A stretch of 64,000 nucleotides of DNA, taken from positions 26,681 to 90,680 of the IMG/VR virus record IMGVR_UViG_3300029841_000117; one strand, 5' to 3'. Shown piece after piece: positions 40,153-57,643 of the stretch. Made by a program: the position numbers and the translations under genes. Position 1 is the stretch's first letter, and the number at the start of each line of letters is the position of its first letter. The notes under the pieces are model-generated. The model did not search any database and had not been told where the DNA came from. It saw only the letters and a list, made by a program, of their open reading frames with translations. Source of the DNA: a virus (Duplodnaviria > Heunggongvirae > Uroviricota > Caudoviricetes).

Positions 40153-41643
40153 TCAGAACGTTCCTCCGTGAAGATTCTTACGAACCTCATCCAGCGTGAA
40201 CTGCTTTTCAAACTTTCCATCTCTAAACACGGTGCGCAGCTCATTGCTGTCCTGTGCTTCAGCCCAAGTAAGACCATCAACGTAATCGTAGCCGTCATTA
40301 GTTTTGACTACGCGGCAGCAACCACGCTGAGACTTCTTAAAATGTCCTGTGTCTGTCTTGGGGTTCTTGAAAATCATAATCGGTTTGCCGTCGGCATCTT
40401 CTGCATATGTCGCTTTAACTGCAATGCCGAATGTATCCCTTGTGTACGGATTGTACTGTTTGCTTCCATCGCTCTCGATTGTCTCTAAGCACTCCATTGA
40501 GAATGAACCGACACCGAGCGAAACATTATTGATTGCAAAGCCGTTTTTCTCCAAAAGAGAATAGATTTGCTCACAGCGCTGCGGAGTAATGCTGTCCCCG
40601 TAAATTGCCTTGACGTGCGGATTCAGCACCTTGTACCCCTTGCTATTTACTGTGCCGCCAAAGATGTCCCACAGACGATATACGGTCTCAGTGATTACAC
40701 TAACAGGGTCACCGCTGTCGCCGCGAATTGAGATGAAGCCATCGTGATTTAGGATGTCATCTTTGAGCTGAGGGAGGACTTTTTCAACAAGATTCCAATA
40801 GTCATAGCTGTCGCTAACCATTGAGAAGCTTTGATGCGGATACACCTCACAAAGAAGTCGTCGAATCTGTGTCACCTCATCACCGTCAACAGCAAAGTTG
40901 GAACACATTACGCTGTGTTCTGTTGAGAGCGCACCATATGCGACAGGTTCCTTGCTACAATCACAGTTGTAATTATGCTCAAGCCACAAAATCGCAGGAA
41001 CTGTCGCCGTATTCAAGAAGCTCAGGCAGAAAGCCGCTGCGCTCTTTGTTGCACTTTCAACGCTCTCTTGCCCGCGCATAGAAAAATCGCCAAGGAGCCT
41101 CGCACGAACCACACTGTCATCGCAAGTGCGTTCTGCATACTCATTGACGATTTTACGATATCTGTACCCAACCTCAGCGGAGACTTGCGTATGCCACATT
41201 GTGCAAGAGAGCATCGTCTCGATGGTGTTGACCAGCCATACGAAGTTAGGGTGTGTATTTGAGATTTCAATTTGTGGGACTTTGATATTGGTTCTCGTTC
41301 CTTCGGGAACAGCACGAATCTGTAACGGAAGATAGCCGAGGTCATGCAATTCACGAAGCCGTTTCTCTCCAACGCCTTTCGTTCTAATTGTTGCCCCAAG
41401 AACTCTGGTGTACTCCTTGAGTACACTATCAAACGGGACATTAAAGAAGTGGTCGTTGAATGCCTCAATGAGATATTCCTGAATGAATGCCTGAAGCCCA
41501 AACAGTGTAACCTTATCGGTATCACCGAGGCGACTCATGCGTGGCGTGTAGTAGGAGACCATTTTGGTCAAGCCATTCGGATACTGTTCAGCGTGACACG
41601 TCTTATAGAAGTCCAGACACAGGAGCGGATTATATGTAATCAT
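40153..41643 (-). CDS. NAMPT-family phosphoribosyltransferase (NadV-like nicotinamide PRTase or Namat-like enzyme)
   Basis: Co-linear with human NAMPT: DFYKTCHAEQYP (DSYKVTHYKQYP), IRAVPEG, GDFSMRG (HDFGYRG), VSDSYD, IRGDSGDP (IRPDSGNP), KGYKVL...IYGD, TLDEVRKN (SFDEIRKN). Confidence 0.8.
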   Translation of the reverse strand: MITYNPLLCLDFYKTCHAEQYPNGLTKMVSYYTPRMSRLGDTDKVTLFGLQAFIQEYLIEAFNDHFFNVPFDSVLKEYTRVLGATIRTKGVGEKRLRELHDLGYLPLQIRAVPEGTRTNIKVPQIEISNTHPNFVWLVNTIETMLSCTMWHTQVSAEVGYRYRKIVNEYAERTCDDSVVRARLLGDFSMRGQESVESATKSAAAFCLSFLNTATVPAILWLEHNYNCDCSKEPVAYGALSTEHSVMCSNFAVDGDEVTQIRRLLCEVYPHQSFSMVSDSYDYWNLVEKVLPQLKDDILNHDGFISIRGDSGDPVSVITETVYRLWDIFGGTVNSKGYKVLNPHVKAIYGDSITPQRCEQIYSLLEKNGFAINNVSLGVGSFSMECLETIESDGSKQYNPYTRDTFGIAVKATYAEDADGKPIMIFKNPKTDTGHFKKSQRGCCRVVKTNDGYDYVDGLTWAEAQDSNELRTVFRDGKFEKQFTLDEVRKNLHGGTF

Positions 41644-41864
41644 TCAGTTTTTCCTCTTTTCTTTAGCTTTTCACCATATTTTTCAAAAAACACAGCAAAC
41701 GCAAACGGTGCTGCAACAATCCAGAAAACGCCTACCATAATATACCCGTCTTCGAACCCATTATATTTGTTATATGGTTCTACGATAACGTACAAGCGGC
41801 AAAGTGCGAATGTTACAATCGCACCAATGCAGAGGTACAGGAGCACCAAAAGGACTATCATCAT
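41640..41864 (-). CDS. Small membrane protein
   Basis: Two TM helices. Coupled between rtcB and the NAMPT-like gene. Confidence 0.35.
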   Translation of the reverse strand: MMIVLLVLLYLCIGAIVTFALCRLYVIVEPYNKYNGFEDGYIMVGVFWIVAAPFAFAVFFEKYGEKLKKRGKTE

Positions 41865-43066
41865 TCCTCTTCACCCGCCTTAAAGTTATAAATCGGCTTG
41901 ATGATGGCATCAATGGTCACTGTTGGTTCGACATTGTTTACGATATCATCCATACCTTTGTATGCCATCGGGCATTCATCGAGCGTGCTTCTTCCAACAG
42001 ATGTAGTGTAGATACCCTCCATCTGCTTCTTGAACTCAGAAACTGTGAATGTCTCTTTCGCCGCGCTGCGGCTCATCAAACGCCCAGCTCCATGCGGGGC
42101 AGAGAAGTTCCAGTCTTCATTTCCTTTGCCGGTACACAGCAAACTACCGTCTCTCATGTTGATAGGAATCAGCAGCCGCTCACCAGCTTGTGCAGAGACC
42201 GAGCCCTTGCGAAGAATCATATTCTCTACATCGATGTAGTTGTGAATAGTCGTAAACTGCTCTTCGACATGGAAGCCCATACCCTTAACAATGGTGTCCA
42301 TCATTGCTTGGCGGTTAAGTTCAGCAAAACGTTGAGCAATTTTCATGTCATGGATATACTGCTCAAACAATTCTCCCTCAACGTATGCAAGCTGCTTTGG
42401 AACTCCCGGCTTCTTTGCCTTCATGCCTTTAAGAACAGCTTGGATTTCTTTTTGTCTTCCAGCCGCTTTTAACTCGTTGACGACCTCCTCGATTTCTTCC
42501 TTGGAATACGAGGTTAACGCCTTGAACGCAGCTTCCTGATAGAAGTTAGCAATCTCCAGACCAAGGTGTCTACTGCCGGAATGCACCACAATATAGATGT
42601 GCCCATCATCATCTTTGTTGGCTTCGATGAAATGATTTCCTCCACCAAGCGTACCGATGCTTTTATATGCGCGGTCTACATTGACCATCTTTGCACAGCA
42701 CAGTTCCGACAGGTCGATGCTACTTGCATATCTATGAGCTTCTGTGCGAATCTCAAAACCGGACGGAACTCCTGCACGAATAACTTTGTCCAGCTTCTGC
42801 GGTTCAATATGCGTTTCTTTGATACGGATAGTTTCCATGCCGCATCCAATGTCAACGCCGACAAGGTTCGGGCAAATCTTATCCTTGATGGTCATCGTGG
42901 TTCCGATTGTACAACCAGCCCCAGCATGAATGTCTGGCATCATACGGACTTTGCTTCCCTCGATGTACGGTTGATTCAAAAGATTGATAACCTGAGAGAT
43001 AGACTCATTATCGACCACGTCGGTAAACACCTTTGCAGTGCCAAACTTACCCTGTAACTCAAGCAT
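41861..43066 (-). CDS. rtcB: RtcB-family RNA ligase (3'-phosphate/5'-OH)
   Basis: MPDIHAGAGCTIG, VGVDIGCGM, HNYID and NFSAPHGAGR signatures. Confidence 0.8.
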   Translation of the reverse strand: MLELQGKFGTAKVFTDVVDNESISQVINLLNQPYIEGSKVRMMPDIHAGAGCTIGTTMTIKDKICPNLVGVDIGCGMETIRIKETHIEPQKLDKVIRAGVPSGFEIRTEAHRYASSIDLSELCCAKMVNVDRAYKSIGTLGGGNHFIEANKDDDGHIYIVVHSGSRHLGLEIANFYQEAAFKALTSYSKEEIEEVVNELKAAGRQKEIQAVLKGMKAKKPGVPKQLAYVEGELFEQYIHDMKIAQRFAELNRQAMMDTIVKGMGFHVEEQFTTIHNYIDVENMILRKGSVSAQAGERLLIPINMRDGSLLCTGKGNEDWNFSAPHGAGRLMSRSAAKETFTVSEFKKQMEGIYTTSVGRSTLDECPMAYKGMDDIVNNVEPTVTIDAIIKPIYNFKAGEEE

Positions 43067-45189: not shown

Positions 45190-45428
45190 GGGGCGTGATT
45201 GTTACAGAAGCCCCATGTGCACAAAGTGACATTTTTAGCAAGCAATTTCCGGGTTATTATTTTTATTCGCTGAATAAAAATTATAACCTCGGAAATGCGA
45301 GGCTAAAAATGAAGAACTCAAATCTTTTCTTCTGCTTTAAGCGAGAAGATACTACACGTTTTGCTGAGACATATGTATGTAGTCAATCTTCAAAGCGGTC
45401 TGTATCATAGCGGTTATCCGCTTATGTT

Positions 45429-45986: not shown

Positions 45987-46469
45987 TTAATCCTCCATTT
46001 CCACTATTTCAGTTGAGACCCTAACGAGCTTGGACAATGCTTTTTCTGTCAGGAACGCATATTGTACGCCAAGCTGCGTACTGGTTAACTCTTTTCGCAT
46101 TGCTGTAGCCGCCACGTCAATCGACACATTGCTATTTCTCAGCTTTGTAAATTTACTTTTCAAATTACTTCCTCCGCCAGCCATATATCCGATTACCAAA
46201 TCGACATTTGGAGCGGTGCCGAGCCTTGAAGAAACCACGAACCGAAGCCAATCCTCAGACCTTTCATCAAACTCCAGAACAGAGAGTCCATCCAAGTCTG
46301 TGAGCAGATATGTTTGGACATATCCCACCCGAGAGTTTTTGACTGCCATCGGCAAGGCATCGAAATAATTTGTGGCAAGATAAAAGCCGCATCCGAAATC
46401 TCGGTGCGGCTTACACTTGTTCAGGGTTGGTACATCGAAATCTGCCGGAGTACCGTGATACAGATACAT
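45987..46469 (-). CDS. Hypothetical protein (MYLYHGT...GFYLAT N-terminus)
   Basis: ORF in the array. Family uncertain. Confidence 0.4.
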   Translation of the reverse strand: MYLYHGTPADFDVPTLNKCKPHRDFGCGFYLATNYFDALPMAVKNSRVGYVQTYLLTDLDGLSVLEFDERSEDWLRFVVSSRLGTAPNVDLVIGYMAGGGSNLKSKFTKLRNSNVSIDVAATAMRKELTSTQLGVQYAFLTEKALSKLVRVSTEIVEMED

Positions 46470-46490: not shown

Positions 46491-46566
46491 TGGTCTGGGT
46501 GAGAGGACTCGAACCCCCGACATCTTGCTCCCAAAGCAAGCGCACTACCATCTGTGCTACACCCAG
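46491..46566 (-). tRNA. tRNA-Pro (anticodon TGG), CCA encoded
   Basis: Manual cloverleaf. Acceptor CTGGGTG/CACCCAG, anticodon arm CTTGC-TTTGGGA-GCAAG, T-loop TTCGAGT. Confidence 0.8.
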
Positions 46567-46595
46567 ATATAATGGTTTTGTTTCCGAACACACAC

Positions 46596-46656
46596 GCACT
46601 ACTGATGGGTTCGAACCATCCTCACCATAAGCATCGCCATCAATGCTTAGTAGTGC
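46596..46656 (-). tRNA. Degenerate 61-nt tRNA-like gene lacking an anticodon arm (probable pseudo-tRNA)
   Basis: Acceptor GCACTAC/GTAGTGC (7/7), D-arm AGCA-TTGATGGCGA-TGCT, T-arm GATGG-TTCGAAC-CCATC. Only 9 nt lie where the anticodon and variable arms should be. No CCA. Confidence 0.35.
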
Positions 46657-46694
46657 GTGCCGGGGCAAAAAGGAAAACGGATATGTCAGTCCGT

Positions 46695-46770
46695 TGGAGC
46701 TGGTGACAGGGCTCGAACCCGCGACCCAGTGAGTACAAATCACTTGCGCTACCAATTACGCTACACCAGC
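46695..46770 (-). tRNA. tRNA-Thr (anticodon TGT), CCA encoded
   Basis: Acceptor GCTGGTG/CACCAGC, anticodon arm AGTGA-TTTGTAC-TCACT. Confidence 0.8.
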
Positions 46771-46814
46771 GTGCACCCTCGTCTTTCCGAGGTGTCAGCT
46801 TTTAGCTAAAAGGC

Positions 46815-46883
46815 TGCTGATGACTGGACTTGAACCAGCGGCTCGCACTTCCGGTGCTGCTCTACCAACTGAGCTACATCAGC
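46815..46883 (-). tRNA. Atypical 69-nt tRNA-like gene (standard acceptor, D and T arms; anticodon arm reduced to GCAC-CGGAA-GTGC; no CCA)
   Basis: GCTGATG-TA-GCTCAGTTGGTAGAGC ... GCTGG-TTCAAGT-CCAGT-CATCAGC. Four nt short of a canonical tRNA. Confidence 0.4.
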
Positions 46884-46997
46884 ATAGATACGCCCTGCGC
46901 CCGTAGGACTCCGTGTGCACCCGGCTGTGTCTCTTACAGAGATAACAGTTGAGTGATGAACTAACCGTACAAACGTAAGCATGACCAACAGAGCAGA

Positions 46998-47073
46998 TGG
47001 AGCTGGAACTCGGAGTCGAACCGAGAACCCACGCTGTACGAAAGCGTCACTCTACCAGTTGAGCTATTCCAGC
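46998..47073 (-). tRNA. tRNA-Thr (anticodon CGT), CCA encoded
   Basis: Acceptor GCTGGAA/TTCCAGC, anticodon arm ACGCT-TTCGTAC-AGCGT. Confidence 0.8.
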
Positions 47074-47232
47074 ATATATGCCATCCTGAAACTATGGCGA
47101 TGTCATTAACACCGCCAATACAAACTCACTATGATGGCAGTTTTGATAGCGTGAAAGGAGAATCATGGATAAATCATCGTGGCACAAGGGATTGCAGGGA
47201 TAAAAAACAAGCTCTAATACCGAAGATGATTT

Positions 47233-47307
47233 TGGCAGGGGCAGTAGGATTCGAACCTACGAATAACGGAGTCAAAGTCCGCTGTGTTACCGCTTCACCA
47301 TACCCCT
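47233..47307 (-). tRNA. tRNA-Gln (anticodon TTG), CCA encoded
   Basis: Acceptor AGGGGTA/TGCCCCT, anticodon arm GCGGA-CTTTGAC-TCCGT, T-arm GTAGG-TTCGAAT-CCTAC. Confidence 0.8.
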
Positions 47308-47425
47308 ATATCTGCAGGCTCATGCAGCGGCGTCCCGCCAAACCAACCTGTAACCGACTTCCAGAGCAGGCTCTGGCGTGTCGTAAAGGCATTTCCTTTA
47401 ACGCATAATTTAATGGTTTCTTACT

Positions 47426-47502
47426 TGGAGCGGCGTACCAGACTCGAACTGGCACCACCGGTTTGGAAGACCGGAGTGCTAACCGTTGAACACCAACGCC
47501 GC
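47426..47502 (-). tRNA. tRNA-Gly (anticodon TCC), CCA encoded
   Basis: Acceptor GCGGCGT/ACGCCGC, anticodon arm CCGGT-CTTCCAA-ACCGG. Confidence 0.8.
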
Positions 47503-47688
47503 ATGGTCGGCTTCTCGCTTAGATTGTCACACGCTACCGGCAACTACGCTCCGAAAAGTCGTAGCCCCTATTCCGTCAGGTCAAACCGGTCTTGACGCAT
47601 CAAGACAAGCGCAGTTTTCAGCAAGCATTTTCATTCTTTGTGAGGTAAGCCGATAATCGCTCACATCAGTTGGGAGCTACCCAACAAC

Positions 47689-47764
47689 TGGCAGGGGTGA
47701 ATGGATTCGAACCACCATCTGACGGTTTTGGAGACCGCTATGTTAGCCATTGCACCACACCCCT
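47689..47764 (-). tRNA. tRNA-Trp (anticodon CCA), CCA encoded
   Basis: Acceptor AGGGGTG/CACCCCT, anticodon arm GCGGT-CTCCAAA-ACCGT. Confidence 0.8.
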
Positions 47765-47854
47765 TGGCGGAGTGGACAGGACTTGAACCTGCACATCCTT
47801 TCGGATTACTCACGGTTTAGCAAACCGCTGCCTTACCGTTAGGCTTACCACTCC
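47765..47854 (-). tRNA. tRNA-Ser (anticodon GCT), type II, CCA encoded
   Basis: Acceptor GGAGTGG/CCACTCC, anticodon arm GCGGT-TTGCTAA-ACCGT, long variable arm. Directly abuts tRNA-Trp. Confidence 0.8.
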
Positions 47855-48543
47855 ATTGGAATTACTTTATTATACAGAGCAATAAATTTCTCATTGACCT
47901 GCTTATCCACATGATAATGTCCAAAGAACCACCGCTTGAATGTGAGGTCGGAACAAACCCTATCCAAAAAGCTGACCATCGGGTCGTTCTCGTACCAGCT
48001 TGCGAGCAGAGTTTGAACACTCCTTGGCGCACAATGTGTAATTACATAGTCAACTCGCCAATTATTTTCTTCGAGCGCTGCAATCGCTCGTTCCATTTCT
48101 TCTCTGGACGGCATTTCCTCTTTCCACCATGAGATATGTTCCACGCGATACTCTTTATCAACAGAGCGAGCACCGCCCATGCAGAAGATTTTCTTTCCAT
48201 CAATCGTGAGCACCTGCCCTCTGTCCAGATGATAGATGTCAGGAGCGATTTCACGCACCTTTCCGCCAAATTTGTCAATCAGCGGGAACTGGTAGAGCAT
48301 ATCAAAGTTCTCATGGTTGCCATCAATCCAAAGTGTCGTAAAGTTTTTCGCTGTCAGCCAGTCTTGCCACCACATCTCTCGATGCGAACCGTCCCAGCAG
48401 AGTCCAAAATCGCCACATATGATTACGAAATCATTCTTCGTCAATTCCTTTTGTTGTGGGAACTTTGTTGTATTAAGCTTGGCAATATCAATGTTTGCGT
48501 GTGTATCTCCAGTGACATAAATCATGCTCAGTTCCTTTCTCAT
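47845..48543 (-). CDS. Calcineurin-like metallophosphoesterase (second copy of this family)
   Basis: GDTHAN, GDFG, GNHE motifs. The 3' end overlaps the 5' end of tRNA-Ser by about 10 nt. Confidence 0.55.
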   Translation of the reverse strand: MRKELSMIYVTGDTHANIDIAKLNTTKFPQQKELTKNDFVIICGDFGLCWDGSHREMWWQDWLTAKNFTTLWIDGNHENFDMLYQFPLIDKFGGKVREIAPDIYHLDRGQVLTIDGKKIFCMGGARSVDKEYRVEHISWWKEEMPSREEMERAIAALEENNWRVDYVITHCAPRSVQTLLASWYENDPMVSFLDRVCSDLTFKRWFFGHYHVDKQVNEKFIALYNKVIPMEW

Positions 48544-49076
48544 CTGCAGTCCATATGTATATTCTGTTCTGGTCTCTTCGGTTATCTCCTGTAGCGACGG
48601 GATTTAGATGAGCTGAAAGCGAGTTCAAATCCCAAGCGGCGATGATGAAATCATTGGGAGACAATGGGTTCGACGGTCGCTCATCGGATGGAGATGACAA
48701 GACATCGAGAATAGTTTTAATGAGCTGTACAGCGAGCTTAGGCGCCTTCGCAGCAGGCTGCGGGCGGGGAATTGTGCTGTCCAGCAAAGTGATACTTCAG
48801 CCTTTGGCGTGAAGCACATTCCTTACGAAATGTTATTCACTGCAAATGATAATTTGATTATCCTGTAATCTACATGGAGGTAGCTCCCTACGAGGAGGAG
48901 CTCCGGCACCCAGTGACTGGCGTGCGACATCTTTTGGTCGTCTCGTTGAATCCATTGTGGCACAATGGATTCAAGTGATTCGGGCTGCTCACCGTGTGGT
49001 TCGCAGCCTCGAAGGATGACTTGAGTCTGCAGGTGAATGCGCCTCCGGGGAGGTTTTCCTCCCTATCAAGTTGTTA

Positions 49077-49096
49077 CTTATGCCTTTGGCGATAAG
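49077..49096. repeat. Dispersed hairpin family, copy 2: CTTAT-GCCTTTGGCG-ATAAG, inside a ~60-nt repeat also present upstream of the RT
   Basis: Lies 50 nt downstream of the RT stop. The flanking TTGTTACTT and CCTCCGGGG..CCTCCC blocks are shared with the copy at 50560-50625. Confidence 0.55.
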
Positions 49097-49145
49097 CATT
49101 GCTTTCGCAATTATGCATTACAGGATTGCGGGTTATTTATAGACG

Positions 49146-50282
49146 TTACCGCAGGTCGTCCTTCATCATGCGGATTACATCCACATTCATTTTCTTGTTG
49201 ATGTAAGCTACAATTGCGTCGATGGTCTCTTTTTCGACCATACGATAATAGCTATGCAGACCATACATTACCTGTACATCATTCCGCTCCCAAGCGACAC
49301 CATTGTTCTTATCTGTGATGTAATTGTACAGCATTGACTGGAACTGCTTTTTCTTTTTATGACCGACCGTAATCTCGTTGTCCTTATTCAGCATAACGCC
49401 AAGATTCCAGTTGCGTCCCGCTGATGAACCATACCGAGTCTTGCTTGCATTGATTGTGAACGGGGCACCAAAGCTGTTCAATGTACTTACTACCAGCTCT
49501 TCAACAGAACGAACATCAAAATCATACTTGGATGAAATGATGAAGTCATCCGCATATCTGGTATAAATGAAGCTCTGTTTTTCAAAATTACGGAGCGTAT
49601 TCGACAGTTTGAAATCAACCGGAATCATCATTACGTTTGTGATAAGCGGTGAAATTGGGGTACCTTGCGGTAGCCCACCATTTAAGAACGCTAACGACAT
49701 AGCTGCCCGCAATGCTGCCTCGCCCTGTGGCTCTTTAACAATCTCACTAAAAGGAAAAACCATCGAGAACATTGAGATGGCATAATCCAATGTTGTGCTG
49801 CCAAAAAAGTCGTGCAGGTCAAGCTTTGCGAACCATTTGCTGCTGTTCTTCTGGTGACGCTTAACCGCATCGACTGTACTCCGCTTCTTTACATAAGCAA
49901 ACGCGGCAGTATGATAGAGTGCATGGAAATCATCCTCGAAAATCGTTTTGAGTCTTCTCAGGGCGTCCATCAGCTCTGCCTTTGGCGCATCGATTCTACG
50001 AAGACCACCAGATTTCTTTGGGATGTAAAAGGTCTCATACAACTCGCTCCGTTCCTTTGCACGAAGCTCTGCTGTATCGTTATTAAATCGCACGAGTTTT
50101 CCGATTAAAGCTTCAACACCAATCTTGCTGGAAAAATGTTCACTGACATTTTCGACCTCGTATGTTCTTGTGTTTGCAATATTGGCATTGACAACCGGAG
50201 GTGTCTGATAGTTTTGAAACAGGTACTCTTCCAGTGTCATCTGATGATAAATCGGTGACTGCCTAACAGTGATATAGACCAT
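49146..50282 (-). CDS. Reverse transcriptase, retron-type (RT domain only; no maturase or endonuclease domains)
   Basis: IPKKSGGLRRIDAP, LDLHDFFGS, GLPQGTPISPLITNV, IYTRYADDFIISS and INASKT align with retron Ec86 RT (IDLEDFF, LLPQGAPSSPKLANL, IYTRYADDLTLS, INSKKT). RBS AAGGAGGGG upstream. Confidence 0.8.
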   Translation of the reverse strand: MVYITVRQSPIYHQMTLEEYLFQNYQTPPVVNANIANTRTYEVENVSEHFSSKIGVEALIGKLVRFNNDTAELRAKERSELYETFYIPKKSGGLRRIDAPKAELMDALRRLKTIFEDDFHALYHTAAFAYVKKRSTVDAVKRHQKNSSKWFAKLDLHDFFGSTTLDYAISMFSMVFPFSEIVKEPQGEAALRAAMSLAFLNGGLPQGTPISPLITNVMMIPVDFKLSNTLRNFEKQSFIYTRYADDFIISSKYDFDVRSVEELVVSTLNSFGAPFTINASKTRYGSSAGRNWNLGVMLNKDNEITVGHKKKKQFQSMLYNYITDKNNGVAWERNDVQVMYGLHSYYRMVEKETIDAIVAYINKKMNVDVIRMMKDDLR

Positions 50283-50603
50283 TTCTTCCCCTCCTTGTCC
50301 AATAACTAACTGTAACCTACATATGTCTGCTGCTTCCCAGAATTCCTAAGTCTGAAGACTACGTCGTCCTTGTGGGAGGTGGTGCGAGCTCTTGCAAGAT
50401 GCGAGATTTTTTTTCTTTGATTTCTTGCGACTGACAGCATGAGTTTGATGTTAGTACATTTCGCCCATGTATCGAAGAATTGGCGAAAAGTGCTTGACAT
50501 TTGGTTGGTTTTGTGGCGCGATGCTGCCGACCCGTGGCAGCCGGTTTGCTTTCAGGGTTCCGCCGCGTCATCCTCCGGGGGTCATCCTCCCGACAATTTG
50601 TTA

Positions 50604-50623
50604 CTTTAGCCTTTGGCGTAAAG
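50604..50623. repeat. Dispersed hairpin family, copy 3: CTTTA-GCCTTTGGCG-TAAAG
   Basis: In the 378-nt non-coding region upstream of the RT and 40 nt downstream of the stop of the 50661..51467 gene. The stem differs from copy 2 by compensatory AT/TA swaps. Confidence 0.55.
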
Positions 50624-50660
50624 CTCTCTTACGAGAAAATCCGTTACAGTCTGTGGCGCA

Positions 50661-51467
50661 TTAAGGCTGCGCCATACCTAATAATTCAAACAGTTCTTCG
50701 TCCGTAAAGACATTTTGAGTTGTGAATGGCTTGATGAAAAACACGCCGTCCTCTCGTTGTTCGACAATCGTGTCAGGGCTCAACGTGCACACCGGTCTTA
50801 CCCCGGAACAGCTTGATGCTGTCAGCCTGTTTAACACACCAGAGCGATTCGAAATCGCCGCTCTTTCGGTCTCAACATCGTCTAACAGCCAGAAGCTCAT
50901 AAATCCACGGTCTGAATCAAGCCCTGCATAACGAGCTTTCAGGTCGAACAAGTCGGCTGTCGGATTCGGACGAATGCCTTTTCTTTTGAATAAGTCAAAG
51001 CGCCGCCCATCTTGGAGGCTAAAAATGTCTGCAATTGATGGTAGGCGAATCAACGAAGACACTCGGTTCTCTCCGACCACATACTCTTTCCTGACCAAAG
51101 AAGCAATCTCGTGGTCTTCAAAGAAATACAGAAACCCGTAATGGTCTTCATAGCGAGCATAACTATACCTCACAAAGGCACCGGGCGAAGAATCATTATC
51201 GTGCATTGCGTGATACCACATCATCTGGTCACTGTTCAAGAACGAAAACAGATTTGACACTGGATACTTCGCATTATTAACACGCCTATAATGCCCAGTC
51301 TCTTCCGCCGCATCGAAGCACAGGTAGTCGATAGCTTTTTCTGTGATAAAATCACAGTTTGGATTGCCTTTCAGCCAAACAATCGGGTACGGGTTGTCTT
51401 TGTCCACACCGTACTTGCCCATCACGAGTTGTGCACCTACTTTGAGAGCACCAACGGTTGTGTCCAT
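50661..51467 (-). CDS. Hypothetical protein
   Basis: ORF between the E1-like gene and the RT upstream region. Confidence 0.4.
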   Translation of the reverse strand: MDTTVGALKVGAQLVMGKYGVDKDNPYPIVWLKGNPNCDFITEKAIDYLCFDAAEETGHYRRVNNAKYPVSNLFSFLNSDQMMWYHAMHDNDSSPGAFVRYSYARYEDHYGFLYFFEDHEIASLVRKEYVVGENRVSSLIRLPSIADIFSLQDGRRFDLFKRKGIRPNPTADLFDLKARYAGLDSDRGFMSFWLLDDVETERAAISNRSGVLNRLTASSCSGVRPVCTLSPDTIVEQREDGVFFIKPFTTQNVFTDEELFELLGMAQP

Positions 51468-51498: not shown

Positions 51499-52176
51499 TT
51501 AAAACGCATCCAACAGCGGCTGGAATGCGTCACAAATAATCAGCTTATTCAGCCCCTTGCCCCTGATGTACTTGACGAAGTTGCTCACGCCCAGAGCACA
51601 AATCACTCTGACCGTAGTCACAACGCCAAGCGTGATGCCACAAGCTGAGACCGGAGTTTCTTCCGCCGCCTCATCGTGTGTAAAATTCATGGAGTTGAGG
51701 AGGTCTTTCTTCATCTTGTAGTCAGACCAATCAGCAGCATAGTGCTGACCAGCCTCCAGCAGAGTTCTGAAATCAAACATCGCCTTTACATACGGATTGT
51801 CGAAGTGTTTCTCAACAATCTTTTTTCTCAGCTCGATGTTATCGACGCACAAGAACACATAGCCGGATAACTGCTGCCCGTCCCACCCATCCTTGTAAAG
51901 CTTCAGGTCATCCTTAACATCAGGATTGATGTCGAAAAGAATATCCGCCAATGCCTCGACCTTAGAGCGCCCAATGTCCTGCTGACGGAAAATCTGATTT
52001 GCCAGATTGTGCGGACTTACTGTGTCCATATCCCACAGTGCGATGTTCGTGAGTCCTAAGCGAACCAGCAGCTCCGCAACCGTCGCGCCGACAGAACCAC
52101 ACCCGACGATGTGGATTCTACAATCAACCTTCTCGGGCTGGAAATATTCATAGCTCTTTGACAGGTCAATAGCCAT
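51499..52176 (-). CDS. E1-like (ThiF/MoeB family) adenylyltransferase, minimal 225-aa form
   Basis: Rossmann motif IHIVGCGSVGATVAELLVRLGL and WDMDTVSPHNLANQ (ThiF D.D.VE.SNLNRQ). Confidence 0.6.
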   Translation of the reverse strand: MAIDLSKSYEYFQPEKVDCRIHIVGCGSVGATVAELLVRLGLTNIALWDMDTVSPHNLANQIFRQQDIGRSKVEALADILFDINPDVKDDLKLYKDGWDGQQLSGYVFLCVDNIELRKKIVEKHFDNPYVKAMFDFRTLLEAGQHYAADWSDYKMKKDLLNSMNFTHDEAAEETPVSACGITLGVVTTVRVICALGVSNFVKYIRGKGLNKLIICDAFQPLLDAF

Positions 52177-52177
52177 A

Positions 52178-53134
52178 TTACTTACCTCCTAAGTATGCAT
52201 AAGGGTCGTAGTCATCTTCGTCTTCCCAGCCATTCATTGATTCTTGGCAGGCATTCTGTCCATGCCAACCAGCTCCAATTCTGGTTCTGGGTTTCTCTCC
52301 CTCGTTCTTTTTACCAGATGACTTATCCTTGTTTTCTTCTTTCTTACTGTCCTTCTTGTCGTCGGACTTACCCGCAAGCGGATTGTACGGAGCACCTGCC
52401 GGAGCCCCCTTGTATCCCTGATTGTAGTAACCGCCGTATCCGCTCTGACCGCCATATGCATAGGACTTTGACTTCACCATATCCTTCGCGTTTTTGATAA
52501 ACTCATCAAGTCCTTCATTCTGACCGATAATCTTGACCGTGATATCTTTATCCTCAAACATCACGTTCTTCTTGAGGTCATAGATTTTATTTGTGCTTGC
52601 AAATGACTTGTTCCAAATCATAAAGATGTAGAAGTCATTATCGCCAAGCATCCCGAGGATTTCCTCTTGATGATTGAGGTCAACAGAGGATGGAGACGTA
52701 CCCATATTTACATGGGAATGTCCCTGCATATAGATGTGGTTGAAACGCTCATCTTCGATGTTTTCCTGAATCCACAGAGCATATTTCTCGGTGTCCATCT
52801 CAACCGTTGCGCCGGTTACCTCCTGCGGATAGACAACGATGTCATCGATGACATACTCGTCAAGCGATTCATCTTCAGTTCGACGTGCGACACCATGCCA
52901 TGCGACCTCTTTATCGAACTCTTTGATAAGCATAGTCATCTTTGCCCACGCCTCTGCGCTGAAGTAAACTACTGCCTTTCTGTCACCACATGAGAACGCT
53001 TTGGTAAAAGAAAGCTTTCCATCCGAGAGCTTTGTAAGTGACAAAGCCTTCTCAAAATCTTGACGGCACTCATCAATGAGTTCCTGCGTCAACTTAATTG
53101 GTCTGCTCATTTTGCGCCTCCTCCGTCTGCTCAT
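52178..53134 (-). CDS. JAB/MPN (JAMM) metalloprotease with Gly/Tyr/Lys-rich low-complexity tail
   Basis: JAMM motif E...HIYMQGHSHVNMGTSPSSVD (HxHx7Sx2D). Ends 2 nt before the E1-like gene. Confidence 0.6.
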   Translation of the reverse strand: MSRRRRRKMSRPIKLTQELIDECRQDFEKALSLTKLSDGKLSFTKAFSCGDRKAVVYFSAEAWAKMTMLIKEFDKEVAWHGVARRTEDESLDEYVIDDIVVYPQEVTGATVEMDTEKYALWIQENIEDERFNHIYMQGHSHVNMGTSPSSVDLNHQEEILGMLGDNDFYIFMIWNKSFASTNKIYDLKKNVMFEDKDITVKIIGQNEGLDEFIKNAKDMVKSKSYAYGGQSGYGGYYNQGYKGAPAGAPYNPLAGKSDDKKDSKKEENKDKSSGKKNEGEKPRTRIGAGWHGQNACQESMNGWEDEDDYDPYAYLGGK

Positions 53135-54587
53135 TCATTGCCTCCTGCTCATCAAGCCATCTAATTGCTTCGTTCGGCTTTACAACGCGACCATCTGGCA
53201 ACTCAATACAACGACTGACCGTGTTATTTGACCACATGGTTCTCATAAACTCGCCCATAACTGCACTGTCGCCGAAGTTCAGACTCTTACAGGACGCAAT
53301 ACACTGCTCAAGTGCACCGATATAATTTCGTTTTCTCAGCAGTTCATTGATAGTCCTGCTGTAATTGCCCATGCAATGATAACGGTCAATATGCGTATTA
53401 GGCATATAACCATCAAATGTGTAATCAGAAAAATCACCAGTCTGCGCAGAAACACTACCATTCAGGTCGAATCTATATGCTGCGCAAAAGCGGATTCTAA
53501 GCCGAGGATTTTCACTTACGAAAATCTCCTGCATCAGCTTCTGCATTTTCTCTGAAGCTGCCGCATTGTGACCGTTGCCACCATCCGGTCGATACACATA
53601 ACTGCTTCTATTGTTGATTGCTCGCTCAGCCATATCTCTGTCAAAGTATTCAAGGTAGTCTTTAACCGAGAAATACATATCCGTATTGCTAACATGAGAC
53701 AGGACAAGTCTGTTGTTGCAGAGGAAATAATCCATGATTTCAGAATCTCCACCGCCCTCTGCAATTCTTTGCTCAAGCCCCAACAATCTGATGCACTTGT
53801 CATTGCGGCGCGACAGATACGCGCCGATAGAATCATTGAGTCGCTGAATCTCCATGTCAATAGATTGGATTTCATTGCGAACAGTATCGCATTCGATGCG
53901 CTCATATCTGGTTTCAAAATCACCCAGCAACTGACGAATCCGCGCTGTTCTGAAATCATATCCCTCGGCAAGCTTTGCAATGTACTTCTCATAGTTTGCC
54001 GAATTTGTTTCTCGCAAGGATTGCATCAATGCAAGCTCATCTTCTGTCAAACCATCATCCTGATTCAGGTACCACGGCATGAATGCAAGAATAGATACCT
54101 GAAGGTAATGCATTTTCTTAACATCAAGATTGTCAACGAAGACAATCACCGACTTCTTGTCAGGGTTGATATAACAATCAACATTGAATGACTTCCGATA
54201 AAACGCTTTGACCTTATCAAGACGGTGATACTCTGGGTAGATAGAAGTAAACTTGTCCTCCACAATCTGCATACAAGCCAGATTGCTATTTTGGTCAGCA
54301 TTGAAGCTATGGACTATGAGCGCACCGCTGGCATTCATTTGATAACTGCTACAGATAGCACTAACCGCACGTTCTGCTGGAACGTTACGGATAGTGTTCC
54401 CATCATAATTGGTCGAACCGAAAGTCAGGTAGACACTTTCGTCCTCTTTGATTCGAGGTGCAACCAGTGCACGAAGCGTTGAAAGGAACGAACAGTCATT
54501 GCCAAAATAGCTTCCGGTAATGTTCTGGAAAAAGCTATTAGCCGCCTCTGACGTAAACGGTGTCGATGTAATGCTTGTCTTGAACAC
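53094..54587 (-). CDS. Hypothetical 497-aa protein, first gene of the JAB-E1 operon
   Basis: Overlaps the JAB gene start by about 40 nt. No recognisable domain. Confidence 0.4.
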   Translation of the reverse strand: MFKTSITSTPFTSEAANSFFQNITGSYFGNDCSFLSTLRALVAPRIKEDESVYLTFGSTNYDGNTIRNVPAERAVSAICSSYQMNASGALIVHSFNADQNSNLACMQIVEDKFTSIYPEYHRLDKVKAFYRKSFNVDCYINPDKKSVIVFVDNLDVKKMHYLQVSILAFMPWYLNQDDGLTEDELALMQSLRETNSANYEKYIAKLAEGYDFRTARIRQLLGDFETRYERIECDTVRNEIQSIDMEIQRLNDSIGAYLSRRNDKCIRLLGLEQRIAEGGGDSEIMDYFLCNNRLVLSHVSNTDMYFSVKDYLEYFDRDMAERAINNRSSYVYRPDGGNGHNAAASEKMQKLMQEIFVSENPRLRIRFCAAYRFDLNGSVSAQTGDFSDYTFDGYMPNTHIDRYHCMGNYSRTINELLRKRNYIGALEQCIASCKSLNFGDSAVMGEFMRTMWSNNTVSRCIELPDGRVVKPNEAIRWLDEQEAMNEQTEEAQNEQTN

Positions 54588-54613
54588 AGAAACACCTCAA
54601 TTCATTTTTATCT

Positions 54614-54698
54614 TGGTGGGGAATATCGGATTTGAACCGATACGGCATACGCCAACAGAACTTAAATCTGTTGTGTCTTCCAATTCCACCAATTCCCC
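54614..54698 (-). tRNA. tRNA-Leu (anticodon TAA), type II, CCA encoded
   Basis: Acceptor GGGGAAT/ATTCCCC, anticodon arm ACAGA-TTTAAGT-TCTGT, variable stem GGCGTATGCC. Confidence 0.8.
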
Positions 54699-54699
54699 A

Positions 54700-54730
54700 T
54701 GAAAAGAGCCGCCCCATGAAGGGCGGCTCT
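54700..54730 (-). terminator. Rho-independent terminator
   Basis: AGAGCCGCCC-ttcatg-GGGCGGCTCT then TTTTC on the minus strand, downstream of the 54741..55019 gene. Confidence 0.55.
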
Positions 54731-54740
54731 AATCTAAAAC

Positions 54741-55019
54741 TTAGGCGTTGTCCGCCTTAACGACGTTCAGCAGGAAGCACTTCTCGGTAATGCCGAACTG
54801 CTGGAAGGTCTTATCGAGGTCGCCGGGGTTCAGAGAAGAACCATCGAGGTGCATGACACCACGAGTGTAATCAACGCCGTTTGCCTCAAGGCAGGAGCGC
54901 AGGGTGGTATTCTCATCGATGATGACAGCCTCACGCTTAACATTGTTGCCAACAGTAACCTTAATCATTATGTATTCTCCTTTTATTCGTTTTTTGTTTT
55001 TTGGGTGGTGGGGCGGCAT
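54741..55019 (-). CDS. Small hypothetical protein, possibly beta-grasp/ubiquitin-like (true start probably MIKVTVGNN)
   Basis: About 76-aa core beginning MIKVTV. Does not end in GG. Confidence 0.35.
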   Translation of the reverse strand: MPPHHPKNKKRIKGEYIMIKVTVGNNVKREAVIIDENTTLRSCLEANGVDYTRGVMHLDGSSLNPGDLDKTFQQFGITEKCFLLNVVKADNA

Positions 55020-55041
55020 AGCCGCCCCGTTGCAGTGTCTC

Positions 55042-55533
55042 TTACTGAGCGACAGTGATGTTGCTCATCACGGTTGCCTTCTCAGCCGCAATCTCTTCGA
55101 GAACAGTGGGGAGCTTCTCTTCGAGCTTGTTGAGGTTGATGATGGCAGCGCCAAGGCGGTCAGCGACCCAATCCTTCACATCGCCGGTAACACCGTCGAG
55201 GAACAGGGTGATGCACGCCAGCTTGTCATCGTCACGGGTCTCGGAGCCGAAGGATGCGCCAACTGCGTTGATATTGCCTGCACCATGAGTTGTGCCGACA
55301 CCGAAGATGGGCTCCTTGCCATCCTCGCCGCCCTTCAGGACGAGCTCCTTGGGACGATACTTCTCGATGGTCTTGATGTCCTCAAGCTTCATTGCGGAAG
55401 TGACGACGACTGCGTCGCCTGCGATAACGATTTTTGCCATGTGTATGTACTCCTTGATTTCAAATGTACCCCTATTAGTTCGTCTTACGACTATCCGCCC
55501 ACACCACGAGGAGGTTGGAGCCATTGTGGACAT
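55042..55533 (-). CDS. Hypothetical protein (probable start at internal MAKIVIAGD)
   Basis: GGAG-like RBS before the internal Met. Gly/Ala/Val-rich. Confidence 0.35.
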   Translation of the reverse strand: MSTMAPTSSWCGRIVVRRTNRGTFEIKEYIHMAKIVIAGDAVVVTSAMKLEDIKTIEKYRPKELVLKGGEDGKEPIFGVGTTHGAGNINAVGASFGSETRDDDKLACITLFLDGVTGDVKDWVADRLGAAIINLNKLEEKLPTVLEEIAAEKATVMSNITVAQ

Positions 55534-55614
55534 AAAACCACTGAAGCAACTGCCCCAGTGGTTATGGTTTTATCTTGCACCACTTCCGTGGTGCTGATGC
55601 TTTTGATACACAGA

Positions 55615-56274
55615 TTAGAAACTGAAAGCCGGGGCGACGCCATAGGAATACCTTGCGTAGTAATTGTACGCGTTGCCGTTCGTGTACACAAAGCAGAAGC
55701 CGGTGCTGTAGTAGTAATAAGGAGAACGCAGCATAGTGTACTCAGCGGAACCATTACGCTTCTTGCCCCAAGGGACATCTTCTTGCCGGTAATATTCGTA
55801 CCAATGACCTTCGCCCGGTGCCGAATAGATGTTCCGTCCAAAGGTTTCTTTTTCGGACTTAATCCAAAACTTGCACTCCGTTTCGAGCAATTCGTTCGCT
55901 CCGTCATAGGTGTTTGCAGTAAGCTTGATTACTGGTTCGACCACCTCAAGAATCTCGTCTGGCATGAGCTGGTAAATTACGCCATCTTCGTCGTTCATCT
56001 TATGGAACAACTCTGTTGCACCCCAAGAGCCTCTGTTCGTGTCGTTGCTATTCCAACGATGCCGGTTTGGAAGGCAGTCAACCATCTCCCAAGTCAGTGG
56101 GAGGATACGACCACTTTTTGTAACATCGTGTTTGAATCCAATGATACGGAACTGAACCAGCGTATCGTCTTTTAATCTGACGTTTTTGAAATCTCCTAAT
56201 CTAAGGAAGTCGGGTGCCATATCCCCAAGCCCCTTCAGCGAACGCCACGGCATATTATCCAAACATTCAGGCAT
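55615..56274 (-). CDS. Hypothetical protein
   Basis: ORF in the array. Confidence 0.4.
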   Translation of the reverse strand: MPECLDNMPWRSLKGLGDMAPDFLRLGDFKNVRLKDDTLVQFRIIGFKHDVTKSGRILPLTWEMVDCLPNRHRWNSNDTNRGSWGATELFHKMNDEDGVIYQLMPDEILEVVEPVIKLTANTYDGANELLETECKFWIKSEKETFGRNIYSAPGEGHWYEYYRQEDVPWGKKRNGSAEYTMLRSPYYYYSTGFCFVYTNGNAYNYYARYSYGVAPAFSF

Positions 56275-56302
56275 ATGTTACCTCCATCCATTATCATTTA
56301 GT

Positions 56303-56392
56303 TGGCGGGGAGTGTAGGATTCGAACCCACGGACGGCTTTCACCGTCAACGGTTTTCAAGACCGCCACCATAAGCCACTCGGTCAACTCCCC
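56303..56392 (-). tRNA. tRNA-Ser (anticodon TGA), type II, CCA encoded
   Basis: Acceptor GGGGAGT/ACTCCCC, anticodon arm GCGGT-CTTGAAA-ACCGT, T-loop TTCGAAT. Confidence 0.8.
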
Positions 56393-56424
56393 AAATAAAA
56401 AGAGACGGGTCATTCGCCCGTCTC
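56393..56424 (-). terminator. Rho-independent terminator
   Basis: GAGACGGG-cgaatga-CCCGTCTC then TTTTTATTT on the minus strand, at the 3' end of the 56410..57072 gene. Confidence 0.55.
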
Positions 56425-57072
56425 AGTCTCAGTTTCATCTTCTTCATCTTCCGGCTCGTCCACGCCGTCGATGTCATATTCATCATACGGAAACTCTGTA
56501 AAGACTTCACAGCCGCTTTCTTTTTCCGTTATAATCATCGGTCGATAGATATGGAAACCGTAATCTTCTGAAAGCTCTTTCAAAAATCCATCAAGGATTT
56601 CATCGACAGCTTCATAGCCATACGCTTCTAAGATATTTGTTCCGTCGTTGTCACCCTCCTGCAGCGCGATTGCGAGGAAATCTGCCATAGCCAAACAGAG
56701 TTCATCATCTCGCTCATACATAGCATCCTCTATGTCCATCCATGTTTCATCGCTTTCTTCTTTGCCGCCATCTGGATTATCTCCCGGAACATACTTGTTG
56801 TCTGTAATCACAACAGGAAAGAGATAGCGTGTGTAGAATTTCTTCGACACCGCCGTACAGTCCTCCTCACTCACGCAAGGTTCTTTGTACTCAATTTTTT
56901 CGTTGCCCTTTGCAACAGCCAAAACTGGGAGGTCGTTTTCCTCGGTAAGATACACGGCGTACTCCGTGTCGGTGTTCTCAGCGATGAGAACCATTTCTTT
57001 GTTCAAACGTTTTCTGCTTGCTTGAAAAAACCCCCATACTGCATCAGCGGGGATATGAATATGAACTCCCAT
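56410..57072 (-). CDS. Hypothetical protein with strongly acidic C-terminus
   Basis: The track ORF extends to 57246, but its first 58 codons read through tRNA-Lys. The real start is ATG 57072, preceded by TAAGGAGG. Confidence 0.45.
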   Translation of the reverse strand: MGVHIHIPADAVWGFFQASRKRLNKEMVLIAENTDTEYAVYLTEENDLPVLAVAKGNEKIEYKEPCVSEEDCTAVSKKFYTRYLFPVVITDNKYVPGDNPDGGKEESDETWMDIEDAMYERDDELCLAMADFLAIALQEGDNDGTNILEAYGYEAVDEILDGFLKELSEDYGFHIYRPMIITEKESGCEVFTEFPYDEYDIDGVDEPEDEEDETETETGE

Positions 57073-57098
57073 AAGGAACCTCCTTATATATTTGACTT

Positions 57099-57174
57099 TG
57101 GTACTCCCGACGAGGCTCGAACTCGTGACCCCAGCATTAAAAGTGCCGTGCTCTACCAACTGAGCTACGGAAGT
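57099..57174 (-). tRNA. tRNA-Lys (anticodon TTT), CCA encoded
   Basis: Acceptor ACTTCCG/CGGGAGT, anticodon arm CGGCA-CTTTTAA-TGCTG. Confidence 0.8.
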
Positions 57175-57345
57175 ATATTGACCGGCTATTACGGTATGCC
57201 CAGAAAGGTGGACACGCTTGAGTTCCACAAACAGTTTTGCCCGCAAAAGATGGAGGTGAATATTTGATGGAGGTGTTTATCTTGATGCAGGTACGAAGAA
57301 AGGAACTTACAAATGAACGAAGGACACGCGCATGGCAAAACTGCA

Positions 57346-57429
57346 TGGTGCAGGATAAGAGACTTGAACTCTTACGCCGATGGCAGCGGGACTTGAATCC
57401 GCCGTGTCTGCCAATTCCACCAATCCTGC
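57346..57429 (-). tRNA. tRNA-Leu (anticodon CAA), type II, CCA encoded
   Basis: Acceptor GCAGGAT/ATCCTGC, anticodon loop TTCAAGT, variable stem GCCATCGGC, T-arm AGAG-TTCAAGT-CTCT. Confidence 0.7.
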
Positions 57430-57436
57430 ATATTTC

Positions 57437-57643
57437 TTATATCCAACCAGCTAATACTGCGATTGTCGTCACACTCAAAACGGTTAGTACAATGTTGTCA
57501 TACACTATTCGATTGTGGAGATTTTTGCTTGCTCGCTCAACCTTTCTTTGGAGTCGCTCAATTTCTTCTTTTTTGCTTTCGCGCTCAAATTTGTATTTGC
57601 ACCACGCTTCGCCTGATATGAAGTCACCACGCTCCACGTTCAT
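57437..57643 (-). CDS. Small tail-anchored membrane protein
   Basis: C-terminal TM helix LTVLSVTTIAVLAGWI. Confidence 0.3.
   Translation of the reverse strand: MNVERGDFISGEAWCKYKFERESKKEEIERLQRKVERASKNLHNRIVYDNIVLTVLSVTTIAVLAGWI

Follow-up and report, generated by a model that had tools for sequence, protein, structure and literature searches.

Retrons guard bacteria against phages and combine one reverse transcriptase (RT), one template RNA, and one toxin; retrons Ec73 and Ec67 are also found on prophage-related elements. The template RNA (msr-msd) has complementary a1 and a2 segments, a branching G, two opposing Gs, one to three msr hairpins, and an msd hairpin, and retron RTs have a region X of the form NAXXH (with H most conserved) and a region Y of the form VTG (with G most conserved) (PMC7736814). 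Retron-like RTs have been noted before in lytic phages without RNA analysis, including Staphylococcus jumbo phages such as MarsHill, in which the non-coding RNA (ncRNA) is undefined (bioRxiv 10.1101/2020.12.14.422802). Another group of RTs from gut phages and prophages, UG27, is accompanied by variable arrays of structure-conserved, sequence-diverse ncRNA units that yield single-stranded DNAs of 50–100 nucleotides (nt) (10.64898/2026.09.22.753630). UG27 is a class 2 UG/Abi RT with YSDD in the tested RTs and needs two accessory proteins that lack domains (PMC9226505; 10.64898/2026.09.22.753630). These proteins are named sORF and bORF, and the units, about six per locus, are ~150 nt long and have a pseudoknot and a central hairpin set between AUCN7UANAG and UUYA motifs (10.64898/2026.09.22.753630). 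Here, we describe an RT gene and its flanking ncRNA units in a 64,000-nt stretch (the window) of the Caudoviricetes record IMGVR_UViG_3300029841_000117 (positions 26,681 to 90,680 of that record). We consider it fairly probable, by analogy with characterized retrons, that the phage encodes a retron-type system whose single RT acts on several template RNAs.

The RT gene (49146–50282, minus strand) encodes a protein of 378 amino acids (aa) with the motifs IYTRYADDF, GGLPQGTPISPL (LPQGTPISP), and INASKT, at the position and with the motifs reported in an earlier note on this stretch, which was made from the letters alone. RVT_1 was the sole Pfam match (E = 1e-19), and no maturase or endonuclease domain was found with Pfam, as the same note had held. 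In a PADLOC search, the best 25 matches were retron RT models (E = 5.7e-46 to 1e-26), with RT_II-A at the top (5.7e-46), followed by I-A, III-A, XIII, and others. The NCBIfam model retron_St85_RT matched with its whole profile covered (2.4e-51, 174.7 bits), and the retron RTs Ec83, Ec78, Ec67, Kva2, and Ec86 ranked first in a sequence search of PDB. Given these PADLOC, NCBIfam, and PDB scores, the RT sits with retron RTs by hidden Markov model comparison, yet in no named family tested. An alignment of 21 diverse members of the RT family revealed invariant TRYADD and LPQGTP.SP motifs and a conserved extension of ~75 aa N-terminal of the RT domain. Region X in this alignment is D-x-x-K-R-H-Q (H invariant; DAVKRH in the window RT), and region Y is N-W-N-L-G (G invariant; NLG in the window RT). 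An AlphaFold2 model of the RT, built from a shallow alignment, was poor (mean pLDDT 57).

The length of the RT varies among relatives. Three of them (L052, L053, and L054; RT at 6001–7365) have an insertion of ~78 aa directly after IPKKxxG, resulting in proteins of ~456 aa. Many cluster representatives of 450–480 aa align to the query in two separate segments, as would be expected if they had the same insertion.

Three complete retron-like ncRNA units were identified on the RT strand of the window, one upstream of the RT (U1) and two downstream (U2 and U3). Their anatomy was read from the RT-strand flanks of 22 representative loci. From 5' to 3', a unit comprises a1 (for example CTGTAAY, TTGCAAT, or TGCAGT), a G, two hairpins (SL1 and SL2), TAACAAnTTG with a purine-rich tract, a variable body of 150–250 nt, YATGTAG, and a2, the complement of a1. 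SL1 is a variable hairpin of 6 bp, often with a GNRA loop, and SL2 pairs over 5 bp and, past a 1-nt bulge, over another 3 bp capped by a triloop. The body usually contains a small hairpin (CATTGYGnCACAAY). U1 (50307–50652, minus strand, 346 nt) is immediately upstream of the RT and consists of a1 (50652–50643), a candidate branching G (50642), SL1 (50636–50625), SL2 (50624–50603), ATGTAG (50322–50317), and a2 (50316–50307). U2 (48860–49126, minus strand, 267 nt) is immediately downstream of the RT, with a1 at 49126–49117, the G at 49116, SL1 at 49111–49098, SL2 at 49097–49076, a central hairpin at 48974–48946, ATGTAG at 48875–48870, and a2 at 48869–48860. U3 (48541–48848, minus strand, 308 nt) is downstream of U2 and has a1 at 48848–48839, the G at 48838, SL1 at 48833–48816, SL2 at 48815–48794, a central hairpin at 48668–48652, and a2 at 48550–48541. 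Its a1/a2 pair is TGCAGT/ACTGCA and that of its orthologues TGCAAT/ATTGCA, a compensatory change. A covariance model of the 5' module (R1) matched U1 at 50588–50654 (56 bits, E = 1.4e-9), U2 at 49061–49128 (69 bits, E = 2.5e-12), and U3 at 48779–48850 (60 bits, E = 1.7e-10).

These units account for the repeats described in the earlier note, which had reported the same hairpin-bearing repeat in both flanks of the RT and had taken the stem differences between copies as a sign of selection on structure. The two copies are present as it described (49054–49098, with stem CTTAT/ATAAG, and 50581–50625, with CTTTA/TAAAG), and the hairpin is SL2, but the copies exceed two. A third full copy is found at 48772–48816 (CTTCA/TGAAG), and partial copies occur at 28220–28246 (CTTTT/AAAAG) and 45329–45348. 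Each of the four SL2 stems listed here is complementary. A 27-nt pattern, TTGTTACTTNNGCCTTTGGCGNNAAGC, with at most 3 mismatches, had four matches in the window and none in any of 100 shuffles. The 378-nt non-coding region (50283–50660) was confirmed to precede the RT in the sense of that gene, whose minus-strand orientation places this region upstream; the non-coding DNA downstream, given as 300 nt, is really ~620 nt (48526–49145) and does contain the perfect hairpin TTGAATCCATTGTG/CACAATGGATTCAA at 48946–48974. Two further details did not hold up. The decamer GCCTTTGGCG, placed there between the two hairpin arms, is itself partly paired, and CCTCCGGGG..CCTCCC, described as part of the repeat, forms no conserved hairpin. 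When the segment after the 5' module was folded in 60 units to seek a third conserved hairpin from it, no common hairpin emerged, only a purine-rich tract on the RT strand, which contains CCTCCGGGG..CCTCCC and follows the 5' module in most units. The flanking repeats are thus shared 5' modules of three msr-msd-like units and form no separate element bracketing a gene.

Another occurrence of GCCTTTGGCG is within the RT coding sequence (49978–49987, plus strand), where it encodes APKAE. It was rejected as a repeat copy and taken as chance, since it has no flanking stem and is found in the closest relatives only. Open reading frames (ORFs) of 99 aa (48488–48787, TTG start) and 64 aa (48625–48819) overlap U3; no counterparts of at least 60 aa were found in relatives, and they are probably not genes. 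A 6-bp hairpin (GGCGCA-GCCTTAA-TGCGCC; 50655–50673, minus strand) covers the stop codon of the gene that precedes U1, and its end is just short of a1. Three relatives (L011, L019, and L023) have a similar hairpin, and an analogous one, GGCGGTTTGAGGTTAAACCGCC, follows the RT stop codon in several relatives. Such hairpins may mark the unit borders as signals for processing or termination.

Repeats beside a phage RT can also be read in terms of other retroelements. Phage RTs are most often those of diversity-generating retroelements (DGRs), and the window RT has a match to the NCBIfam group II RT/maturase model (2.2e-24, 86 bits), weaker than that to the retron model. If the RT belonged to a DGR or a group II intron, the repeats would be template repeat/variable repeat pairs or intron ends. 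We give this almost no weight. The RT has LPQGTPxSP and lacks a maturase or endonuclease domain, and retron models score far better. Rfam gave no intron RNA, either at gathering thresholds or with E allowed up to 10. Within positions 48500–51000, no long pair of near-identical repeats was found; local direct repeats reach at most 45 nt, with 67–71% identity. Differences between copies are compensatory stem changes and not adenine-specific substitutions. The RT does not group with group II intron or DGR RTs; such a grouping is what the earlier note had named as counting against a retron, and the DGR or group II reading is refuted as far as sequence analysis reaches.

Covariation in the 5' module was examined using 53 aligned diverse modules. 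SL1 and SL2 positions were paired in 94.6% of cells, compared with 68% when columns were shuffled and 38%–44% when the partner was slid by 1–3 columns. Cells with changes on both sides numbered 219, against 67 expected. Selection on structure, as first suggested from two copies, was thus confirmed on 53. One SL2 position has U-G as its most frequent pair, which fits an RNA on the RT strand only. The G after a1 was invariant in all 53 modules and in all 44 units of a composite alignment, and a G before a2 was at least 90% conserved across 44 distinct units.

The a2 segment was sought in 75 distinct units as the best complement of the 8 nt preceding the G, 120–520 nt downstream, and YATGTAG played no part in this search. 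A location by sequence profile alone was dropped, as nhmmer was too weak on the short motif. A perfect complement (8 out of 8) was found in 67 of the 75 units, and a1 comprised 26 different octamers. Control a1 sequences taken from other units had a perfect complement in a mean of 5.7 units (maximum 12). Correctly located partners were ~230–350 nt downstream, right after YATGTAG. The resulting 10-bp helix was paired in 95% of cases among 44 distinct units, compared with 71% when shuffled and 25%–39% when slid, and all ten pairs had changes on both sides. The two outermost pairs, which were not used for locating a2, form in 32 and 37 of the 44 units, with four to six pair types. Of the features that the earlier note had linked to an msr/msd RNA, the a1/a2 inverted repeats were found, as was a candidate for the branching G, the invariant G after a1.

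Unconstrained minimum free energy folds of U1, U2, and U3 each recovered a1/a2, SL1, and SL2, with fold-energy z-scores of −1.5, −8.1, and −4.4, respectively. Single-sequence folds of the 150–250 nt bodies had several hairpins each. Bodies of orthologous units barely align, even with RTs 71%–79% identical to that of the window, and the 5' module, central hairpin, and 3' module are kept. A GGAGG/CCUCC stem closing the body was considered as a conserved feature and rejected: it occurs in the window U1 and U2 folds, and was neither found by eye in the relatives inspected nor predicted by RNAalifold. Nothing in Rfam matched the units, whether gathering thresholds or a limit of E = 10 were applied, so they do not belong to a curated RNA family.

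Relatives with RT identities from 100% down to 41% were used to see how far the units accompany the RT. In IMG/VR, 59 loci encode an RT 55%–100% identical to that of the window, on contigs of up to ~137 kb. Relatives were also found on 12 contigs of metagenome-assembled genomes (MAGs), mostly in Clostridia bins (Oscillospiraceae, Acutalibacteraceae, and Roseburia), and in a GenBank fecal-metagenome record labeled 'Bacteriophage sp.' (41% identical). Among the clusters of a 50%-identity library, 441 matched the RT at E up to 1e-30, and the best 150 of these all scored at least 247 bits. No near-identical DNA was found in GenBank phages. A GenBank protein search gave the 41% fecal relative as the closest match, the rest being distant RTs, and yielded no close relative in cultured phages. 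One MAG contig of 358,930 bp (L067, JAUNSG010000001.1, an Eubacteriales MAG) carries an RT 63% identical to that of the window, which hints that some members of the family are in integrated prophages or in much larger elements.

With filters off, R1 had three full matches in the 64-kb window, all beside the RT, and two weak partial matches elsewhere. Across the 59 viral loci it had 162 matches, every one on the RT strand. Most were within ~1.6 kb of the RT, and a few were 2–7 kb downstream. One unit upstream and two downstream is the layout in 37 of the 59 loci, and one on each side in 11; an additional unit 2–5 kb downstream is present in some loci. The upstream unit is 273–389 nt before the RT start in nearly all related loci. 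Units were also present in the 12 MAG contigs and in the 41%-identical record, and the association holds down to this identity while the surrounding genes change.

This association bears on the possibility that the units are generic phage repeats (terminators, promoters, or elements like repetitive extragenic palindromes) with no functional link to the RT, which we regard as very improbable. Their intergenic location would suit such repeats, as would the two SL2 elements at 28.2 kb and 45.3 kb in the window, both distant from the RT, and a simple scan lists terminator-like sites in the region, all of them on the opposite strand. There is, however, no T-run after SL2 in U1, U2, or U3, and the R1 matches are confined to the RT strand and mostly near the RT, so generic terminators, which the earlier note had named as a reading that would undo its own, do not explain the repeats. 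Promoter-like matches on the RT strand of the window do not coincide with the units. A phage promoter role for TGTAGATT as the main reason for its conservation was rejected, as the window has 55 matches to it where 55.6 were expected, which is no enrichment. In U3 of the window, TGGACT replaces TGTAGATT, and the complementarity of a1 and a2 is kept.

The two distant SL2 copies belong to a second class of element that carries SL2 without an msd-like body. One (28167–28288, minus strand; SL2 28246–28227; R1 match 28210–28275, 21.7 bits, E = 0.02) has the order CCGCTTTGTAGATT, stem, SL2, and an intrinsic terminator, GCCCGC-TAC-GCGGGC-GGTTTTTCTTTT. The other (45304–45400, minus strand; SL2 45348–45329; partial R1 match, E = 0.18) has CCGCTTTGAAGATT and a stem upstream of SL2 and, downstream, a terminator-like hairpin that shares the SL2 3' arm. 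Class 2 elements in general start with CCGCTTTG(T/A)AGATT, which resembles the motif preceding a2 in full units, followed by a stem of 6–8 bp with a TACATA loop, ATC, and SL2. They end in a hairpin and T-run that reuse the SL2 3' arm (AGAAGAA..TTCTTCATTTTT) or in a separate intrinsic terminator. They are kept 3.3–5 kb downstream of the RT in relatives (for example at 10889 in L001, 10273 in L011, 8465 in L019, and 5419 in L027) and look like small RNAs or attenuators run by whatever binds SL2.

U1 and U3 also have features of leaders. The a2 segment of U1 ends 24 nt before the RT start. That of U3 ends 15 nt before the start of a calcineurin-like metallophosphoesterase gene (47845–48525, minus strand; Pfam Metallophos, 4.8e-14; phrog_1649, 7.5e-41). 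The start of this gene is the ATG at 48525, from which relatives have the conserved MIYVTGDTH; the listed start at 48543 falls inside a2. The ends of U1 and U3 are 15–25 nt ahead of the ribosome-binding sites of the RT and the phosphoesterase, so these units are also the 5' leaders of the two genes. U3 directly serves the phosphoesterase gene as its leader in the window and in several relatives, and many loci have a metallophosphoesterase gene after their last unit.

The units could accordingly be cis-regulatory leaders or processing signals rather than templates, with a phage protein binding SL2 and controlling downstream genes. Besides the positions of U1 and U3, this would suit the class 2 elements, in which the SL2 3' arm can re-pair into a terminator-like hairpin with a T-run, as in an attenuator. 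A type VI retron is reported to derepress translation via reverse-transcribed DNA (bioRxiv 10.1101/2025.10.22.683967). We nevertheless find a purely regulatory role improbable. U2 is followed by another unit and no gene, and the units occur only beside this RT family and on its strand. The geometry of a G with a1 and a2 beside a retron-clade RT suits a template, whereas a leader has no known need for it. The roles of leader and template are compatible and need not exclude each other.

A retron mechanism is the most likely one because, beside a retron-clade RT, the sequence shows every msr-msd feature of the retron definition that sequence can reveal, except a single conserved long msd hairpin. 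The RT would recognize the shared SL1/SL2 module, and the a1/a2 helix would set the 2'-OH of the invariant G beside the template end (..YATGTAG). Copying would start at ..YATGTAG and cover part of the variable body. In this way, one RT could make two to four distinct small single-stranded DNAs, each linked to RNA, in an infected cell. The earlier note had proposed a candidate phage retron with its msr/msd RNA upstream or, alternatively, a new RT-ncRNA arrangement. Both descriptions fit, as retron RT models match best and U1 carries retron hallmarks, and units are present on both sides of the RT.

Several observations weigh against a retron-type system. The steps past RNA folding rest on analogy with characterized retrons. 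The RT score of 174.7 bits is below the curated NCBIfam cutoff of 235 for retron_St85_RT, and for every named retron family tested in NCBIfam the RT scored under the curated cutoff. Region X is DAVKRH and not NAXXH, and region Y is NLG and not VTG, only the H and the G being kept. RNAalifold on orthologues found a small central hairpin only and no single conserved long msd hairpin. U1 is thermodynamically ordinary by its z-score. Because a2 was found by complementarity, 8 of the 10 helix pairs are biased toward pairing; a1 sequences taken from other units, the YATGTAG motif next to a2, and the outermost two pairs serve as controls for this bias. The class 2 elements carry SL2 without a body, so SL2 is used outside template units too. 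No known retron effector adjoining the RT was found with Pfam or PADLOC.

The genes upstream of the RT form a conserved block in the order ~490-aa protein, JAB, E1-like protein, sometimes one more gene, ncRNA unit, and RT. In the window, the first is a conserved 497-aa protein of no known family (53094–54587, minus strand). It had no match in Pfam, NCBIfam, PHROG, or PDB, nor in Pfam or PDB when a 14-sequence profile was used; its C-terminal MPNTHIDRYHCMGNY resembles the HPN..C motif of E2 enzymes. The second is a JAB/JAMM-type metalloprotease (52178–53134, minus strand), recognized from an alignment of 14 orthologues and a weak PADLOC JAB match (E = 0.0025). Its invariant residues are E76 and H139-x-H141-x7-S149-x2-D152, which we take to be a JAMM motif. 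The third is a ThiF/E1-like adenylyltransferase (51499–52176, minus strand; Pfam ThiF, 3e-24) with E1-type matches in NCBIfam and PADLOC. An ORF of 92 aa in the same region (54741–55019, minus strand; MIKVTVG...) has the look of a small beta-grasp protein, without a C-terminal GG. By sequence, the region 51499–55019 may encode a phage-borne ubiquitin-like conjugation set. All 19 loci examined have JAB and ThiF/E1-like genes upstream of the RT, and most of them have the ~490-aa protein; both statements include the 41% relative. A limit of 4.5 kb on the search may be the reason why the ~490-aa protein was not recovered in five of the 19 loci (L019, L031, L042, L052, and one more). Shared phage ancestry could account for part of this synteny.

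The window also contains 13 tRNA genes in two clusters on the RT strand, together with genes for an RtcB ligase, a CCA-adding enzyme, NAMPT, a DNA ligase, and replication proteins. The set of tRNA and NAD genes (46491–47854 and 54614–58291, minus strand; 19243–20589; 40153–41643; 41861–43066) is suggestive of countering host defenses that cleave tRNA or deplete NAD. A DUF3990 protein of 160 aa (45987–46469, minus strand), located between a tRNA cluster and a class 2 element, matched several PADLOC phage defense candidate models, among them PDC-M13B (3.3e-21) and PDC-M10A (6.8e-20). Two genes are recombinase-like, a serine recombinase (25394–26476) and a weak integrase-like ORF (13799–14749). 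Three Rfam RNAs scored well over their gathering scores within 3 kb of each other, RAGATH-36 (60957–61113, 132.8 bits), RAGATH-4 (63394–63524, 149.7 bits), and RAGATH-16 (63700–63771, 95.6 bits), all on the minus strand. By association only, the tRNA genes, RtcB, the CCA-adding enzyme, NAMPT, and the JAB/E1-like module suggest phage-host or phage-phage conflict, either counter-defense or the exclusion of competitors; the accessory region of the window is of the kind where phages keep such functions.

A broader interpretation of the retron-type system is conceivable, though we hold it tentatively and think it rather unlikely as a whole. The RTs would form a large, previously undescribed family of phage retrons in which one RT and an SL1/SL2 handle produce a set of DNAs from two to four fast-evolving templates, for the benefit of the phage. 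The small DNAs would guard no toxin and would instead act, for example, as decoys or sponges against host nucleic-acid-sensing defenses or competing phages. The system might work with the module of the ~490-aa, JAB, and E1-like proteins, and the SL2-bearing attenuator-like RNAs elsewhere in the genome might respond to the same RNA-binding protein.

If one RT does serve several templates here, the retron architecture would be changed in this family: carried by a phage, with several templates that share a recognition module and diverge in their bodies, and with no evident toxin. It would also point to a yet-unknown use of small reverse-transcribed DNAs in phage biology. An RT that serves several templates via a short hairpin handle could be of use for multiplexed DNA production in cells and for retron editing; the locus is compact (~2.2 kb), and the 441 diverse clusters from gut organisms provide a family for screening. 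Support is good for the RNA anatomy, and the readings of product and function draw on analogy. Literature searches found no description of phage-encoded retrons or of several msr-msd units per retron, and no published report of this RT family.

Among canonical retrons, those nearest by RT family are of the St85/Sen2 type (II-A), followed by I-A, III-A, and XIII. As in these retrons, a retron-clade RT is preceded directly by an ncRNA on the same strand. The RNA is closed by a1 and a2, with a G after a1 and an opposing G before a2, and has two msr-type hairpins supported by covariation, followed by a variable msd-like region. The arrangement is unusual for a retron in that three msr-msd-like units are present on both sides of the RT. 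In the family as a whole, unlike in canonical retrons, two to four ncRNA units accompany each RT, some downstream and some a few kb away, and the msd-like body has multiple hairpins and no single conserved long stem. The ~75-aa RT extension, the deviating regions X and Y, and the lack of a recognized adjoining effector are further differences, and the carrier is a tRNA-rich phage of 110–140 kb and not a bacterial defense island. The MarsHill locus also has a retron-type RT in a large phage that adjoins a long non-coding region, thought by its describers to contain the ncRNA, with no effector nearby; its RT has an N-terminal domain of 200 aa and is 26%–28% identical to the window RT over part of the sequence.

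UG27 is the nearest analogue, and the likeness is in the array. Both are phage RTs with several structure-conserved, sequence-diverse ncRNA units that vary in number among relatives, with extra units in neighboring intergenic regions and without defense-island signatures. The most serious rival is a UG27-like system, in which the RT, perhaps with accessory proteins, would turn a hairpin of each unit into a short free cDNA hairpin, with no 2'-5' branch to a priming G. The gut-phage setting, several units per RT with diverse bodies and conserved end motifs, and a conserved gene block without known function would suit it, and the RT family (~370–480 aa) overlaps the 380–450 aa reported for UG27. 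Other features make this reading unlikely. The active site was RYADD in 138 of the 150 nearest 50%-cluster representatives and RYSDD in three, whereas tested UG27 RTs have YSDD. Full-length matches were to retron models (1e-51 to 1e-26), whereas NCBIfam models of the UG type matched weakly and partially (Drt2, 6.7e-11; Drt3a, 1.2e-7). The units, usually three per locus, are 250–350 nt long with the order a1-G-SL1-SL2, not ~150 nt, and by inspection the published AUCN7UANAG and UUYA motifs do not fit them. The neighbors include recognizable ThiF and JAB proteins beside one ~490-aa protein without domains, whereas no domains are detectable in the accessory proteins of UG27. That a phage RT can come with an ncRNA array was published for UG27 in 2026; a clustering of several msr-msd-like units at one retron-type RT was not found described. 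If the retron reading holds, the locus would add to UG27 a second case, of independent origin, of several ncRNA units at a phage RT.

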